From positions 15,116 to 79,115 of the forward strand of contig CAZNUA010000003.1 of NCBI GenBank assembly GCA_964576115.1: a stretch of 64,000 nt of DNA, given 5' to 3'. Made by a program: the position numbers and the translations under genes. The first letter of the stretch is position 1. Every line of letters begins with the position of its first letter. Positions 9,723 to 15,943 of this stretch are shown here, in pieces. The notes beneath the pieces are model-generated. The model did no database searches and was not told where the DNA came from. It saw nothing but the letters and a program-made list of their open reading frames with translations. The DNA is from an uncultured Gemmatimonadota bacterium (lineage in GTDB: Bacteria; Blakebacterota; Blakebacteria; Blakebacterales; Blakebacteraceae).

Positions 9723-9894
9723 CACATGTCTCACAGGCCCCGGCCGGCTCCGGACCGCTCCCGGCCGGCTCCGGATTGCTCCCGCCCGCTCCCGCCCAAT
9801 GCAAGCCGGTGGACCGAGAAACAACCGGGAAAGGGAAGAGCCCGGAAATGGAGAGCCGGATCGGCAGACCGGACTCAGAGGAAGGACCGACCGC

Positions 9895-10530
9895 ATGGAT
9901 ACGAAACAGACTCTTGTCCGCGAGGCCCTGCTGCTCTTTCTGCAACGGGGTTACGACACCGTCACTCTGACCGAAATTGCCGCCCGGGTGGGTATCACCA
10001 AACCGGCTATCTATTACCATTTCAGGAACAAGGAGGAACTGGCCGAGGGGGTTCTGGACCATTTCACTCAGGTCATGACCGCCTGGAGCCGGGCCCGTTT
10101 CGGGGGATGTACAACCGCCCGGGAACTGGTCGAGGCATTTATCACTTCGTGGCAGGATTTCGCCCGGGTCGAACGGATTCTGACCAGCGATGAGACGGGT
10201 GTTGATGAACCGGGGGGGGATGAGATCGGGGCCGATGATGCGGGCGGGAGCTTTATCGATTTCGTTACCAGCGCGGCCCGAAGCCAGCCGCGTTTTCGGC
10301 AACGGCTGGGGGAAATCTTCGCCGCCACCCGGCACAACCTGGCCGAGAGCTTCCGGGCCGGTCAGGAGGCGGGTGAGATCAGAACCGATCTCGATCCCGA
10401 CCTGGCGGCGCTACACCTTCACGCCCTGATCGAGGGAATGAGTTTTCTCGACGGCTTCGGAGCGGTCCCCACGGGACCAGAGACGGCTGCCGCTCTCTTT
10501 ACCCGGGTGTGGGAGGGATTACAGGCATGA
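9895..10530 (+). CDS. TetR/AcrR-family transcriptional regulator
   Basis: HTH signature TVTLTEIAARVGITKPAIYYHFRNKEEL. Start set at MDTKQ. Confidence 0.8.
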   Translation: MDTKQTLVREALLLFLQRGYDTVTLTEIAARVGITKPAIYYHFRNKEELAEGVLDHFTQVMTAWSRARFGGCTTARELVEAFITSWQDFARVERILTSDETGVDEPGGDEIGADDAGGSFIDFVTSAARSQPRFRQRLGEIFAATRHNLAESFRAGQEAGEIRTDLDPDLAALHLHALIEGMSFLDGFGAVPTGPETAAALFTRVWEGLQA

Positions 10531-11348
10531 ACGACATACTCGATACCGGTTTGCTTTCGAACGAAAATGGGGCCAGCGCTCGGTCTGATACAAGCGGTGC
10601 CACCGCCGGACGCTCGCGGCCGGTTGTGGCTCTGGTAGCAACTGTCGTCGTCTATACCCTTGCGGTCTTCGTCATCCCCGACCTGTCCCCGCTCAGAGCC
10701 CTCACGAGGGCTCTGCCATGGCTGACCGGGGGGATCATCACCCAGACGGTGCTTCTGCTCTCGGCTCTGCTGCTGATGCGCCTGCTCGGCCGCCGGCCGT
10801 GGCACATGTACGGCTTTCGCTCAGTTCGTCCGGGCTTGCTTCTGGCTCCGCTCGCGGGTGCGGTCGGGGTCGCCCTGGCCGGCCTGGTCGTGGCCGCGAT
10901 CCTGACCCGGTTCCTGCCCGGCCCCGGCCCGGGGACCGGGCAGGAGGGCGGTCTGCACCCGGCTGCGCGGCAGGGCATGGTGCATATCGTCCTCGCCGTC
11001 TGGCTCTACGCCAGCCTGTGCGAAGAGGTGCTCTATCGCGGCTGGCTGCAGAGCGAGCTGGATGTCTGGAAGCGGGGTGAGAGACACCCCGCCTTTTCGA
11101 TCCCGGTCCTCGTCCCCGCCCTCCTGTTCAGTCTGGGCCACCTCTGCCTGATTTCCTCCTTCGGTCCGGGCATGCTCCTGACGGTTCTGCTCACCACCTT
11201 CGGGATCGGCTGGCTGGCCGGGTATCACCGGCAGAAGACGCAGAGTCTGCTGCCGGCTTACCTGGTGCACCTGACGGCCAATGTGGTCGGTTCGGGGCTA
11301 CCCCTGTTGATGGGCCGTCTGATGGGGGGGGGGCCCGGCTCACCCTGA
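10527..11348 (+). CDS. CPBP-family intramembrane glutamic endopeptidase (CAAX protease-like)
   Basis: Motifs EEVLYRG, FSLGH and HLTAN on a multi-TM scaffold. ATGA start/stop overlap with the TetR gene. Confidence 0.75.
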   Translation: MNDILDTGLLSNENGASARSDTSGATAGRSRPVVALVATVVVYTLAVFVIPDLSPLRALTRALPWLTGGIITQTVLLLSALLLMRLLGRRPWHMYGFRSVRPGLLLAPLAGAVGVALAGLVVAAILTRFLPGPGPGTGQEGGLHPAARQGMVHIVLAVWLYASLCEEVLYRGWLQSELDVWKRGERHPAFSIPVLVPALLFSLGHLCLISSFGPGMLLTVLLTTFGIGWLAGYHRQKTQSLLPAYLVHLTANVVGSGLPLLMGRLMGGGPGSP

Positions 11349-11356
11349 ATAAAGAA

Positions 11357-11380
11357 AGGGGCGCCCCAAGGGGCGCCCCT
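11357..11380. terminator. GC-rich hairpin AGGGGCGCCCC-AA-GGGGCGCCCCT; rho-independent terminator for the minus-strand lipoprotein gene and a stem-loop after the CPBP gene
   Basis: 11-bp perfect stem. On the minus-strand transcript it is followed by a UUUCUUUAUU tract. Sits between convergent genes. Confidence 0.6.
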
Positions 11381-11403: not shown

Positions 11404-13383
11404 TCAGCGGCTTGGTGGAACCAGGGTGATGCTCAGAGTAGCGCACTCATCTTCATTGTCTTCGTTGAAGTCGTGGCTGTCGTCGTTGCTGAAGAGCGAG
11501 AAGGTGCCGGTGCCGAGGGTGTATTGGAAGGCTGACTTCCAGCCGTCGGCGTTGTCGGTGATGATGACCATATCGCCGAAGATCTCGACCGTGCCGGTGC
11601 CGTTGTCGACCGATTCGCCGGGGAAGGCTATCGAGAACGACATGGTACCGTCGCTGGCGATGTCGATCGAGAAAGAGCCGCCCTCACCGACCATGTCGTA
11701 GATGTCGGCCGGATTGTCGATGCTGGTCAAGAGGAACTGGCTGGCCATCCAGGTGCCGGTGAAATCGCCGATGGTGGCGGGGGTGGTGCTCGAGAAGACG
11801 ATCTCGAGCACGGCGCCCTCATCGTCATAGCCCATCTGACTGAAATCCCAGTGATCGGGCTTGCGGATGGTCCAGGTGCTCCCGCTCACATCGCTCCACA
11901 TGTACTGCGTCCCCGGCTCGCCGACAATGGTGACCATGAGCAGGTCGCCGAAGAGAGCGGTGGTGCCGCTCTGGATCTCAAACGAGTCGCAGGGCCCGGC
12001 CATGAGCATCTGGAAGCTGCCGTCGCTTTCGGCCACCATGGTCGCCATGGCGTGGTTGGCGACCATGTCGAAGGTTTCCCCGACTCCATCGCCGGTGTAG
12101 GTCCAGGCGGTAGCCGTCCAGGAGCCGGCGTAGTCGCTCACCACGCCTGGGGTGATCATTTCAATCGTGATTTCTACATAGGCGGGGTCGTCGACATTGT
12201 CATTATCCCAGTCGTACGATTCGCCCATGCCCCGAAGGTTGACGGTGGAACCGTCGACGGTGGCCTGAAGGACGGTGTCTTCATCTTCGTCGGTGAAGTC
12301 CAGGATCAGAATGTTCCCGACGACGCTCATGGCGGCCGTTTCGGTCTCGACGCCGGTGGTGTCGTCCTCATCGGGTCTGGAGAGGTGGATAATGGTGAAG
12401 GAACCACCGGCTCCGATCTCGATGGTGGAGGCGATATCGGGGGTTTCGCTGAAGCTCTGAGCCGCATTGTCAGGGTTTTTGAGAACGAACGACGTCAGGC
12501 TGTAGTACCCCGCCAGCGAGGTCAGGCTCAGTTCGGTGATCGGCACCAGGTTGATGGTCACCACGGCGGGCAGCTCGGTGTCGCCCCCGAAATTATAGGT
12601 CACGTCGCTGCGGGTCAGGGTGATGTCGGTCCCGACGACCTGCAGGGCGCTGGTACCGTCGCCTTCAGTGCCGGGGAAGTCGACGAAAAGGCTGTCACCG
12701 CCACTGACCAGGGTGCTGGTTCCGGTCTGTACCTGGGCTCCTCCCTCATCGCCGGGGAATCCCATGACGACGGTGGTATTGCCGGCGACATCCAGTTTCA
12801 GGGTGAAGAATCCGCCCATGGCGATCAGGTCCTCGCTGCCGTGCACGCCGCTGGGATCGCTCCAGACGAAGTGAGTGGCCTTGAAGGAACCGGCCAGGTC
12901 GGAGAGATCGAGATCACCGCTGTCCTCGGGGTGCTGGAAGACCATCACTTCGGTGGCTGTTTCATCGGTACCGTCGTCGTTGAAGTCGAAAGATGAGTTG
13001 GTGTAGGTGATGGTCAGGATCTCACCCACCATCAGGTAGGACATCGTCATGGTTTCCGTGTTGGTCGTCAGGGTCAGGGTCGTGTCATCGGCCTCGACCG
13101 TCCCCGAATCCGACCACGATCCGCTCGAATCGACGAAGGCAACCGAAAAATCGCCGTCGGCCTCGATCACGAGGGTGGTCCGTCCCCCGGCGGCATAGAG
13201 ATCGACCTGCTGCGAGGTATTGGCGTTGTTGGTGATGACGTGCTGTGTCGTCACCCAGGTGCCGACCAGAGCGTCGAGATTGCCTGTGTCTTCTTCATCC
13301 TGCGGGAGAAGTTCATCGCACGCGCCTGCGAAGACAACTACGAGCAGGAGAGCCAGGATGAGGGAAAGGCGCCGGGAAAGCAT
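11404..13383 (-). CDS. Large acidic lipoprotein built from five tandem ~115-130-aa modules, each opening with a GxW/GxF/GxY (lipocalin-like) motif
   Basis: Signal plus lipobox LLLVVVFAGAC. Internal repeats start at GTWVTTQH, GSFKATHF, GYYSLTSF, GSWTATAW and GTWMASQF, and each ends in an acidic D(F/W)N(D/E)D-type tail. Start set at MLSRRLSL. Confidence 0.6.
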   Translation of the reverse strand: MLSRRLSLILALLLVVVFAGACDELLPQDEEDTGNLDALVGTWVTTQHVITNNANTSQQVDLYAAGGRTTLVIEADGDFSVAFVDSSGSWSDSGTVEADDTTLTLTTNTETMTMSYLMVGEILTITYTNSSFDFNDDGTDETATEVMVFQHPEDSGDLDLSDLAGSFKATHFVWSDPSGVHGSEDLIAMGGFFTLKLDVAGNTTVVMGFPGDEGGAQVQTGTSTLVSGGDSLFVDFPGTEGDGTSALQVVGTDITLTRSDVTYNFGGDTELPAVVTINLVPITELSLTSLAGYYSLTSFVLKNPDNAAQSFSETPDIASTIEIGAGGSFTIIHLSRPDEDDTTGVETETAAMSVVGNILILDFTDEDEDTVLQATVDGSTVNLRGMGESYDWDNDNVDDPAYVEITIEMITPGVVSDYAGSWTATAWTYTGDGVGETFDMVANHAMATMVAESDGSFQMLMAGPCDSFEIQSGTTALFGDLLMVTIVGEPGTQYMWSDVSGSTWTIRKPDHWDFSQMGYDDEGAVLEIVFSSTTPATIGDFTGTWMASQFLLTSIDNPADIYDMVGEGGSFSIDIASDGTMSFSIAFPGESVDNGTGTVEIFGDMVIITDNADGWKSAFQYTLGTGTFSLFSNDDSHDFNEDNEDECATLSITLVPPSR

Positions 13384-13569
13384 GAGTTCCTCCTCAAGGA
13401 ATCTGCGTCTGCTAGTAAAAGGAGCGCGCACGCGCACCTTCCGGGACCGACAGGTCAAAGGCTGGCTGGCTGTTCCCGTACGGGCCCCGGGAACTGAGGA
13501 CTACCCTCAAAGAGTCGTCATTGTCGGGCTCTGTGTCAAGAACGCCTTCAGTGGTTTTCTGAGTCACAG

Positions 13570-14756
13570 TCAGTCGTTATTAGAGCGATAGATCGCCACC
13601 AGCTCGAGCAGTACTTCCCGGGCGATTTGGCCCAGGTTGGTGGCTCCGGAATTGTAGTTGCGCATCAGGACCACGCTGAGTCCACTCTCGGGCTCGAAGA
13701 GCAGATGCGCGGTATACCCGGACACAGAGCCCCCGTGCCCGGCCAGCAGAATTCCGTCGGGAGTGCGGTAGAGAGAGAAGCCCAGTCCATACCCGGTTAC
13801 CGCGCTCCCGGCGTCTGCTCCGACTTCACGCTCGGGGGTCTGAAAGCTCAGCATTTCGGCCCGGGCCTCCTCGCTCAGGATGGCCCGGCGGCTGAATCCG
13901 CTCACGGCGGCCGCAAATCGAGCCAGGTCGCCGACGGTGGAGTAAATACCGCCGTTGGGAACTTTGTAGCCCCGACCGGCATGCTCGCGGGCGGGCCGTT
14001 CGCTGTCCACCTCGCCGCGCCGGTTGTTGGCGTAACCGACTGCGAGCCGTTCGGCGAGTTCGGGGGTGATGATGAATGTGCTGCCGGTCATGTTCAGGGG
14101 ATCGAAGATATTTGCCTCCACGAGCTGCATGAACCCGATTCCGGCCGCCCGGGAGATGGTCAGCCCCAGGATCCCGAAACCGATATTGGAGTACGAGTAT
14201 TCCTCACCGGGAGCCGAGCGGAAGGCCGTGGTCGGGATCGAGGCCAGAATCTTCTCCTCCCAGCCGGAGATCGGTCCGGCGGCCGCTCCCTCCAGACGGG
14301 GCTCGCGGATCAGGCCGGCGGTATGGCTGGCCAGTTGACGAAAGGTAATCGGCGCCGTGCCGGGAGGGCGTTCGGCCAGATCGGCCAGGGCGGGCAGATG
14401 CTCTACGGCGGTTCTGTCGAGATCGATGACACCGGCGTCCACGAGCTGCATCAGGGCTACGGCCGTGAAGGATTTCGAGATCGAACCGGTTCGGTAAATC
14501 ATGTCGGGCCGGGCGGGGATCCCGTGTCCGGCATCAGCCAGACCGAACCCGCGCTCCCAGATCGCCCGTTCGCCCCGGCTCACCGCGGCGACGATACTGC
14601 CGATCGAATCAGCCGCAACATCGGCGGCCAGGCGTTCACCGAAGCGTTGCAGAACGGGTTCGAACTCGGGCCAGCTGCGGCTGCAGCCGGCCAGGGCAAC
14701 CAACAGCAGGCCGAGACACCAGGCTCTCGTTGCCCCAAACGCGGCTCGGGGCACAA
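13570..14756 (-). CDS. Serine hydrolase of the beta-lactamase/PBP (class C-like) family, probable lipoprotein; start uncertain (no ATG near the signal peptide)
   Basis: Active-site SISKSF (S-x-x-K) and a later YSN motif. Signal plus lipobox LGLLLVALAGC. A GTG start near 14754 is inferred; the longer ORF to 15048 is Arg-rich and unlikely to be translated. Confidence 0.65.
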
Positions 14757-15034
14757 GGTGTCCCCGTCCTCGTCCGTGAGGAAAGATGCGAATTTCCGGT
14801 TGCACTGCGGACTCCTTGCTCCGGTGGGCTCGTCTTGACCGCTGTCGATCGGGAACCCTACCATCGGGTGCCGTCAGACGCGGGCCTGTTTGTATCGAGC
14901 CTATGATGGTCGCCCGGCGATGTCCAGTAATCGGACCGGTCCGGTTCGGTCCGGTTCGATCAAAAGCACGGGCACGGGCGACACCTGTTGCGGGACCGGT
15001 CGTTGGTTCGCAGTACGGTCGCCGGAGAAGGCTG

Positions 15035-15943
15035 ATGAACCCAGACAACGACGCTGTTATTACGGCCGTGTTCGGCGAGCTGGTCGAGCTCGATTTCTCC
15101 GACGGGCGGCGTGCCGCCGCCTTCCGGGCACGGAGTGCGGGCGAAGTCGTGGTCGGCGACCGGGTCAGGGTCCAGCGGGTGGGACCTGAGGGAGCGGATT
15201 CGGACGAGATCGGCTGGCGGGTGATGGAGAGCCGCGAACGGGAGCACTGTCTCTGGCGCTCGTCGCGCCGTCATGCCGCCCAGCTCGTGGTGGCCAATGT
15301 CGACCGGATCGCTGTCGTCACAGCCTGCGATCGCGAACCGCGACGGGGCCTGATTGACCGTTATCTGGTCACCGCCGAGTTCGCGGCGATCAGCGCCGTT
15401 TTGATCCTGAACAAGACCGATCTGCCCGAGGCCGACGACATCGCTGGCAGGCTCGAGATCTACCGCCGGCTGGGCTACGAACTGTTCGCGACCAGCGCGC
15501 TGACCGGGGAGGGAATCGAGGTTCTCGGTACCCATCTGGGATCGGGAATCAGCGTTCTGGTCGGCCATTCCGGAGTCGGCAAGAGCACCCTGCTCAACCT
15601 TCTGGTTCCCGGGGCCGATCTGCGCACCCGCGAGATGAGTACGGCCACCGGCAAGGGCCGACACACCACCAGCGTGGTCACCGCCCACCGCTACGGTAGC
15701 GGTCTGCTGGTGGATACGCCGGGAATCCGGGAGTTCGGACTGGTGGGTGTCGAACCGGAGACGCTCGTCGACGGCTTCCGTGAATTCGCTGCGGTGACCG
15801 GTACCTGCCGCTTTACGGACTGTGCTCACCGGACCGAACCGGGGTGTGCGATCAGGGAAGCAGTCGAAGACGGCCGGATAGATCGGGAGCGCTACGACTC
15901 CTACCTGCGGATCAGGACCAGTCTGGAGGCCGGCGAACGGTAA
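15035..15943 (+). CDS. rsgA: Ribosome small-subunit-dependent GTPase A (RsgA/YjeQ)
   Basis: Circularly permuted GTPase motifs NKTDL...VGHSGVGKSTLLN...DTPG, an OB-fold N-terminus and a C-terminal zinc site CRFTDCAHRTEPGC. Start at the ATG at 15035. Confidence 0.85.
   Translation: MNPDNDAVITAVFGELVELDFSDGRRAAAFRARSAGEVVVGDRVRVQRVGPEGADSDEIGWRVMESREREHCLWRSSRRHAAQLVVANVDRIAVVTACDREPRRGLIDRYLVTAEFAAISAVLILNKTDLPEADDIAGRLEIYRRLGYELFATSALTGEGIEVLGTHLGSGISVLVGHSGVGKSTLLNLLVPGADLRTREMSTATGKGRHTTSVVTAHRYGSGLLVDTPGIREFGLVGVEPETLVDGFREFAAVTGTCRFTDCAHRTEPGCAIREAVEDGRIDRERYDSYLRIRTSLEAGER

Follow-up and report, generated by a model that had tools for sequence, protein, structure and literature searches.

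The window analysed here, a 64,000-nucleotide stretch of contig CAZNUA010000003.1 (assembly GCA_964576115.1) from an uncultured Gemmatimonadota bacterium, contained a minus-strand gene at positions 11404-13383 that encodes an acidic lipoprotein of 659 amino acids (aa). This is a real gene, and its product can be described with confidence as a five-module lipoprotein built from tandem, divergent Lipocalin_4 (PF13648)/calycin barrels. The protein as a whole is best explained as a lipid-anchored chain of five barrels that would act as a Ca2+-stabilised binder or spacer, a reading to which we assign a probability of approximately 0.6. The kind of domain is already known, whereas the five-barrel layout and the acidic loop that accompanies it are hitherto undescribed. 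To our knowledge, lipocalin-like barrels are common in bacterial lipoproteins, with a known function for almost none of these, and the characterised multi-barrel lipocalin chains known to us are all from insects. Literature searches found nothing on multi-barrel bacterial lipocalin-like proteins, and nothing relevant on PF13648 or on tandem lipocalin-like lipoproteins in Gemmatimonadetes.

Five Tandem Modules

A first-pass annotation of the window had described five consecutive lipocalin-like units, each opening with a G-x-(W/F/Y) motif. Cutting the protein at the five G-x-aromatic sites gave modules of approximately 125 aa each: module 1 (aa 33-156; window 12916-13287, minus strand, as for all modules), in which the first strand opens with GTW; module 2 (aa 157-283; 12535-12915), with GSF; module 3 (aa 284-411; 12151-12534), with GYY; module 4 (aa 412-534; 11782-12150), with GSW; and module 5 (aa 535-659; 11407-11781), again with GTW. 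Plain self-BLAST of the protein gave no off-diagonal matches, which points to old repeats that have diverged to about 20-25% identity, and Smith-Waterman alignment calibrated against shuffled sequences was therefore needed. All ten module pairs (10/10) scored at z = 4.7-16.4, in every case above all 300 composition-preserving shuffles, and a hidden Markov model (HMM) of the module identified exactly five full-length copies in the open reading frame (ORF), with no others in the 64-kb window. The internal repeat signal is thus strong, and both the five units and their openings are borne out.

Calycin-Type Fold of the Modules

Module 5 was modelled singly by AlphaFold2 from an alignment of 35 modules, and was predicted to fold into a short turn at the N-terminus and then nine strands in succession (predicted local distance difference test, pLDDT, 96.2; predicted template modelling score, pTM, 0.86). 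When this model was compared with the PDB using Foldseek, the top 50 matches were all calycin-type barrels, including the Bacteroides lipocalin-like proteins 4iab, 4i95, 4gzv, and 4qrl, as well as Bla g 4, L-PGDS, fatty acid-binding proteins (FABPs), UnaG, nitrobindin, YedD, and ToxS. The best E-value was 3.7e-4, the best template modelling (TM) scores were 0.5-0.6, and sequence identity was 8-18%. No Ig-like or sandwich fold occurred among these 50 matches; therefore, the result that had been named beforehand as contradicting a lipocalin/calycin fold was not obtained. The module models showed the antiparallel up-and-down beta-barrel of 8-10 strands, resembling solved calycins, that is expected of the calycin superfamily, in agreement with the fold that the first-pass annotation had read from the GxW first strand.

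The modules are clearly lipocalin-like, as divergent Lipocalin_4/calycin domains, without being kernel lipocalins. They share with kernel lipocalins (PF00061; Bla g 4, L-PGDS, and bacterial Blc) an eight-stranded up-and-down barrel (structural TM 0.5-0.6), a secreted or lipid-anchored location, and a short N-terminal helix followed by GxW, which corresponds to structurally conserved region 1 (SCR1). G-x-W/F/Y followed a short helix in all five modules, and G9 and W11 were each conserved at 93% in the family. On the other hand, the window modules are about 40 residues shorter, no C-terminal alpha-helix followed the last strand in either the module-5 or the full-length model, the family profile had neither a conserved TDY (SCR2) nor a conserved basic residue (the Arg/Lys of SCR3), and PF00061 matched neither the protein nor its modules.

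In the full-length AlphaFold2 model (pLDDT 82.4, pTM 0.65), the pattern of a helix followed by strands was repeated five times. Modules 2 to 5 were joined by linkers of about 4 residues, and the sole low-confidence linker was found between modules 1 and 2 (residues 153-156). No PDB entry resembled the entire chain in a Foldseek search with this model, and the matches to TbpB and to sliding clamps were discarded as meaningless at TM 0.1-0.17. The top matches to the full-length model included DUF4822 (4nw4), DUF3598 (2o62), and the TbpB-type bilobed surface lipoproteins, which are likewise bacterial (lipo)proteins with tandem barrels. However, these contain only two barrels or lobes, and the handle domains of TbpB are missing from the window protein. 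The window chain is arranged differently, because global TM values were only 0.13-0.32 (TMq 0.13-0.15, TMt 0.16-0.32).

The nearest architectural analogues are the insect polycalins (Bombyx chlorophyllide-binding protein and Plutella polycalin), in which many lipocalin-like barrels are also joined in one membrane-anchored chain. With five HMM domains and five modelled barrels, the window protein carries the three or more barrels per chain that make a protein polycalin-like, as an architectural analogy only. Insect polycalins are eukaryotic, anchored by glycosylphosphatidylinositol, and composed of true lipocalin domains that lack the acidic loop described below, and no homology with them was seen beyond the fold. 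Plutella polycalin contains 15 lipocalin-like domains (PMC10145054).

An Acidic DxDxDG-Type Hairpin Loop

The best-conserved stretch of the domain in single-module proteins was (F/Y)-D-F-D-x-D-G-x-(D/E)-(E/D)-P-A, with conservation of 98% at D104, 91% at F105, 92% at D/N106, 79% at D108, 80% at G109, 90% at E/D112, and 92% at A114. In the module-5 model, this motif occupied a hairpin loop (104-111) between the last two strands (93-103 and 112-121). The window protein contained such a loop in module 1 (DFNDDGTDE, aa 133-141, 12961-12987, minus strand), which was conserved in all orthologs, in module 3 (DWDNDNVDD, aa 391-399, 12187-12213, minus strand), and in module 5 (DFNEDNEDE, aa 638-646, 11446-11472, minus strand), where it joins the last two strands. 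The pattern D.[DN].[DN][GN]..[DE] occurred three times, at homologous positions (aa 133, 391, and 638), compared with a mean of 0.03 in shuffled sequences, and 0 of 20000 shuffles reached three. It was absent from modules 2 and 4. The earlier claim that every unit closes with an acidic segment is therefore correct for modules 1, 3, and 5, in which the segment is intact, but not for module 2, in which it is shortened, or for module 4, in which it is degenerate. A hairpin loop of the DxDxDG type, resembling Ca2+ sites, is the better reading of this closing segment.

Among close orthologs, the loops of modules 1, 3, and 5 were retained with single substitutions at most, the loop of module 2 was one or two residues shorter, and that of module 4 was degenerate. 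Other five-module clades kept the loop in four or five modules. Intact loops were found in 185 of 256 modules across the family, comprising 80/99 in one-module proteins and 36/60 in five-module proteins.

A non-acidic alternative, DFG(A/S/T/E)G--(E/Y)V(P/L)A, which is two residues shorter, recurred in place of the DxDxDG loop in module 2 of the window clade, d5 of P0009, d2 of P0014, and d3 of P0059. Module 2 of the window protein itself carried the related NFGGD-TELPA, which is one residue shorter. The recurrence of this form at differing module positions suggests that the loop has two stable states in multi-module proteins.

Acidic residues at positions 1, 3, 5, and 9 with Gly or Asn at position 6 constitute the DxDxDG calcium-binding signature, which is found in EF-hands, Excalibur domains, thrombospondin type 3 repeats, and the FG-GAP hairpins of integrins. 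The family loop follows the same arrangement (D-x-D/N-x-D-G-x-x-D/E) and is set in a beta-hairpin, as in the blades of the integrin propeller. Its calycin-barrel context sets it apart from all of these loops, and it lacks the Glu found at position 12 of EF-hands. The Excalibur motif reads DxDxDGxxCE (PMC2761259). On balance, the motif slightly favors the view that the DxDxDG loops bind Ca2+ and stabilise their barrels, with three such sites in the window protein. No DxDxDG loop in a lipocalin/calycin fold was reported in the literature searched. Since intact and degenerate loops stand side by side in one protein, the modules provide built-in controls for calcium-binding work.

Family, Copy Number, and Origin of the Five-Barrel Form

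Eight homologs were found in an index of 5.8 billion proteins, seven of which, at 655-688 aa, were full-length and carried all five modules, and the eighth (483 aa) ended inside module 4. A word-indexed homolog search with the module profile gave only 4 proteins; the productive approach was an exhaustive search of 1.84 billion representatives, which detected 1110 proteins at E <= 1e-3, of which 412 reached E <= 1e-10. Among the 157 best-scoring of these 1110 proteins, 100 contained one module, 36 two, 6 three, 3 four, and 12 five, although this list is biased toward multi-module proteins because module scores add up. The question whether relatives carry one module or many, raised in the first-pass annotation, is thus answered by a range of one to five. 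Within the same 157, a lipobox was recognisable in 73 of the 100 single-module proteins, and the multi-module members listed were acidic. Relatives were named "hypothetical protein" or not at all in their source databases. A scan of one genome per species located them chiefly in metagenome-assembled genomes (MAGs) of Gemmatimonadota, plus one case each in Ignavibacteriaceae, Calditrichaceae, a flavobacterium, and Eisenbacteria. The window protein belongs to an unnamed family of very acidic lipoproteins with one to five barrels, for the most part a single one, and this family comprises at least 1110 representative clusters.

The known family closest to these proteins is PF13648, together with the Bacteroides structures 4iab, 4i95, 4gzv, and 4qrl, which are likewise bacterial lipoprotein barrels of small size, carry G-x-W in the first strand, and provided the best structural matches. 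Two of the eight homologs carried a precomputed PF13648 match, and the gathering cut-off of 22.4 bits was passed by the orthologs P0003 (25.6 bits) and P0006 (35.3 bits), and by the two-module protein P0017 (58.1 bits). PF13648 also matched 54 of 90 single-module relatives at E <= 0.01, and no other Pfam family recurred. In contrast, neither the window protein nor any of its five modules matched PF13648 at E <= 10. Membership of PF13648 thus appears to hold for the family, but not directly for the window sequence. Known members are single-domain proteins, compared with five domains in tandem here, identity to the solved structures was 13-16%, and matches to the PF13648 model stopped short of the C-terminal DFDxDG loop and last strand, which are a feature of the window family.

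Each window module usually found its best match in the module of the same position, even in distant five-module proteins. This positional match was obtained for module 2 in every other five-module protein and for modules 1, 3, and 5 in most, except that module 4 in more distant proteins was usually best matched by module 5 or module 2. Because of this correspondence, a single origin of the five-module architecture, followed by inheritance, is most likely. One Gemmatimonadota MAG (CAYSYY01; loci L004, L005, and L006) harbored a five-module ortholog with 72% identity, a second five-module protein with 43% identity, and a four-module paralog, which shows that the multi-barrel form has expanded within this lineage. 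In the close clade, the mean pairwise identity of modules 1, 2, and 5 was 0.56-0.61. Modules 3 and 4 (window 11782-12534) evolve faster among orthologs, with mean pairwise identities of 0.39 and 0.41, respectively.

The combination of GxW with a DxDxDG hairpin loop gives the family a sharp and testable signature, found in more than 1000 clusters at copy numbers of 1 to 5. The locus would also offer a tractable envelope component for Gemmatimonadota, in which few envelope proteins have been studied; its importance is modest as long as no role in transport or spacing is demonstrated.

Predicted Lipid Anchor and Composition

The PROSITE PS51257-type rule comprises a positive n-region, a hydrophobic h-region, and the lipobox [LIVMFWSTAG](2)-[LIVMFYSTAGCQ]-[AGS]-C, in which the Cys must fall among residues 1-35. 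The N-terminus of the window protein matched this pattern as a regular expression (MLSRRLS, LILALLLVVVF, and AGAC), and the predicted signal peptide spans aa 1-22 (MLSRRLSLILALLLVVVFAGAC; 13318-13383, minus strand), with Cys22 as the predicted lipidated residue. Cys22, Phe18, and Gly20 were invariant across the eight homologs. The first-pass annotation had named a 660-aa acidic lipoprotein with the lipobox FAGAC; its acidity and lipobox stand, while the length is 659 aa plus a stop. A short acidic tether follows (aa 23-32, DELLPQDEED; 13288-13317, minus strand), in which 6 of 10 residues are D or E, and residues 16-33 of the full-length model had pLDDT <50. The mature protein (637 residues) contains 107 D+E versus 11 K+R, for a net charge of about -96, and the composition is rich in T (12.7%), D (11.0%), G (10.2%), and S (9.3%).

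Asp23, encoded at window 13315-13317, is the +2 residue, and the C-D-E-L that begins at the lipidated Cys was conserved in the close clade. Relatives outside this clade usually had C-G-D-D or C-D-D-D at this place. Asp at +2 is an inner-membrane retention signal in E. coli, and this rule is unverified for Gemmatimonadota.

Possible Role and Alternative Explanations

The predicted features describe a lipid-anchored envelope protein in which a 22-residue signal peptide and a 10-residue acidic tether would be followed by five barrels of about 125 aa, each with a short helix at its N-terminus, a first strand that carries G-x-W/F/Y, and 8-9 strands in antiparallel order. An intact loop would hold one Ca2+ through positions 1, 3, 5, 7, and 9, as in EF-hands and the FG-GAP hairpin loops of integrins, and the bound ion would stiffen its barrel. 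The protein would accordingly carry about three Ca2+, in modules 1, 3, and 5. Because the linkers among modules 2 to 5 are only about 4 residues long, the chain would be mostly rigid, and it would extend outward from the membrane with its five small barrels available for binding. The protein is expected to be a binder or spacer, stabilised by Ca2+, for small hydrophobic or amphipathic molecules of the envelope or the environment, and not an enzyme. This picture of a chain stiffened by Ca2+, with binding barrels displayed in the envelope, is tentative, and any specific role is speculative.

Several observations weigh against this explanation. Ca2+ binding was proposed solely from motif resemblance, no other position of the alignment clearly co-varied with loop integrity, and the acidic position 29 (Asp29) was equally conserved with and without an intact loop. 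Moreover, the loop is not essential for the fold, because two of the five modules lack it. Searches of Pfam and NCBIfam with the whole protein and with each module gave no match beyond noise (none even at E <= 10 for the protein itself), searches of PDB sequences with the module profile and the single-module family profile detected nothing significant, and the structural TM-scores of module 5 were only 0.5-0.6. The inter-module geometry of the full-length model is provisional, its pTM having come from an alignment of only 8 sequences. Finally, the recurrent neighbors at a distant five-module locus (L002) and 20 further family loci belonged only to promiscuous two-component, BTAD, and BNR families; with no conserved neighbor, the gene context gives no lead to a ligand or pathway.

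The calycin-type fold, with lipocalins and FABPs among its structural matches, also brings to mind a multi-site carrier of hydrophobic molecules, similar to a polycalin. Such a carrier would hold a lipid, isoprenoid, carotenoid, or quinone in the central cavity of each barrel for periplasmic relay or storage, and the acidic loop would be merely structural or incidental. The predicted N-terminal lipid anchor would be in keeping with this role, as would five short-linked barrels that could extend far from the membrane, and insect polycalins demonstrate that a chain of numerous lipocalin-like domains can serve to bind ligands (PMC10145054). However, a carrier appears unlikely, given that the barrels are small (about 120 aa) and lack the C-terminal helix and SCR2/SCR3, that the most conserved residues sit in the loop and turns and define no cavity lining, that no conserved lipid or pigment genes were found nearby, and that the extreme acidity (107 D+E versus 11 K+R) would be left unexplained.

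A second alternative is a surface or periplasmic scaffold that binds cations or carbohydrates, in which the barrels would be structural beads without ligand pockets. The strongly negative chain, with its Ca2+ loops, would then act as a buffer or bridge for divalent cations, attach to polysaccharide or mineral surfaces in a Ca2+-dependent manner, or serve as a spacer or adhesin. The net charge of the mature protein (about -96) and the acidity of the listed multi-module relatives throughout are consistent with a scaffold, as is the DxDxDG-type loop as the strongest motif of the family. The fast-evolving central modules 3 and 4 (0.39-0.41 versus 0.56-0.61) have the character that is common for exposed variable parts, and the best PDB match (4iab) is annotated as a monosaccharide-binding protein. 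Yet this annotation is only putative, no conserved glycan-utilisation, S-layer, or adhesion genes occur nearby, and Asp at +2, which retains lipoproteins in the inner membrane of E. coli under a rule unverified for this phylum, does not favor a surface location. The scaffold is considered somewhat less probable than the carrier.

A bolder form of the preferred explanation, a Ca2+-stabilised binder or spacer, would regard the family as an undescribed Ca2+-binding branch of the calycins and its five-barrel members as bacterial "polycalins" that form rigid, Ca2+-dependent, membrane-anchored rods. This proposal is improbable. If it were true, such a rod would be of sufficient length to span a large part of the periplasm, and in Gemmatimonadota it could pass on hydrophobic cargo or determine the spacing of the envelope.

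The weakest alternative, that the apparent modules merely reflect the composition of a sequence rich in Thr, Ser, Gly, and Asp or that the ORF is not a real gene, draws on the biased T/D/G/S composition and the lack of off-diagonal matches in self-BLAST, but was ruled out by composition-preserving shuffles that never reached the observed module scores, by homologs at 42-72% identity that retain five collinear modules, by confident AlphaFold2 models, including that of module 5, by the search of representatives, and by the strong Shine-Dalgarno sequence and terminator that flank the ORF.

Gene Start, Neighborhood, and Flanking Signals

The ORF extends over window 11404-13458 on the minus strand, with its stop end at 11404 and the longest form starting at 13458, and it is the sole sensible long ORF within these limits. 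The ATG at 13383 is the credible translation start. It is favored by a GAGGAGG Shine-Dalgarno sequence, by the start site of the ortholog, and by the lipobox-fitting N-terminus (MLSRRLSLILALLLVVVFAGAC), and the product from this codon has 659 aa followed by a stop. The Shine-Dalgarno sequence, as read from the DNA, lies at 13389-13395 (minus strand), 5 nt 5' of the ATG. The 72%-identical ortholog, from a Gemmatimonadota MAG (locus L001), shares the start position and carries AAGGAG at the equivalent site.

Upstream on the same strand, the lipoprotein gene is flanked by a beta-lactamase-family gene. The first-pass annotation had placed this neighbor at 13570-14756; the family is confirmed (PF00144, E 9e-64), but those coordinates are not a multiple of three, the ORF spans 13570-15048 (minus strand), and the adjacency is not conserved. 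Downstream, a convergent pair on the plus strand encodes a TetR-family regulator (9799-10530) and an Rce1-like/CPBP intramembrane protease (10509-11348), and the 22-nt overlap of these two genes suggests an operon. L001 shares this synteny, with MarR and amidohydrolase genes upstream and the TetR and Rce1-like genes convergent downstream, and the syntenic amidohydrolase was 86% identical; together, synteny and this identity assign the window to the Gemmatimonadota MAG lineage of the ortholog. The MarR gene lies directly upstream of the ortholog in L001, in place of the beta-lactamase-family gene. The latter and a plus-strand ORF at 14786-15943 are two extra ORFs relative to L001, located between the MarR and lipoprotein genes. 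Synteny of the TetR and Rce1-like pair was found in the close ortholog locus only, and L002 has an alkaline phosphatase gene upstream and an unrelated gene for a 257-aa protein downstream. A functional link to the beta-lactamase or the Rce1-like protease was rejected, since neither adjacency recurred at L002 or the 20 further family loci; the beta-lactamase adjacency, absent from L001 as well, is incidental.

A hairpin that resembles an intrinsic terminator (11357-11380, minus strand) lies 24 nt past the stop, within the 55 bp that separate the lipoprotein gene from the convergent Rce1-like gene, and has a 10-bp stem with 9 GC pairs and a T-rich tail. Transcription of the lipoprotein gene probably terminates here, and the gene would thus be the end of its transcription unit. 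On the upstream side, a 36-nt block at 13449-13484 (minus strand; CCCGTACGGGAACAGCCAGCCAGCCTTTGACCTGTC), which opens with the perfect 10-bp palindrome CCCGTACGGG, may be a promoter or operator. This block was conserved in L001 despite the different upstream gene, beta-lactamase in the window and MarR in L001.

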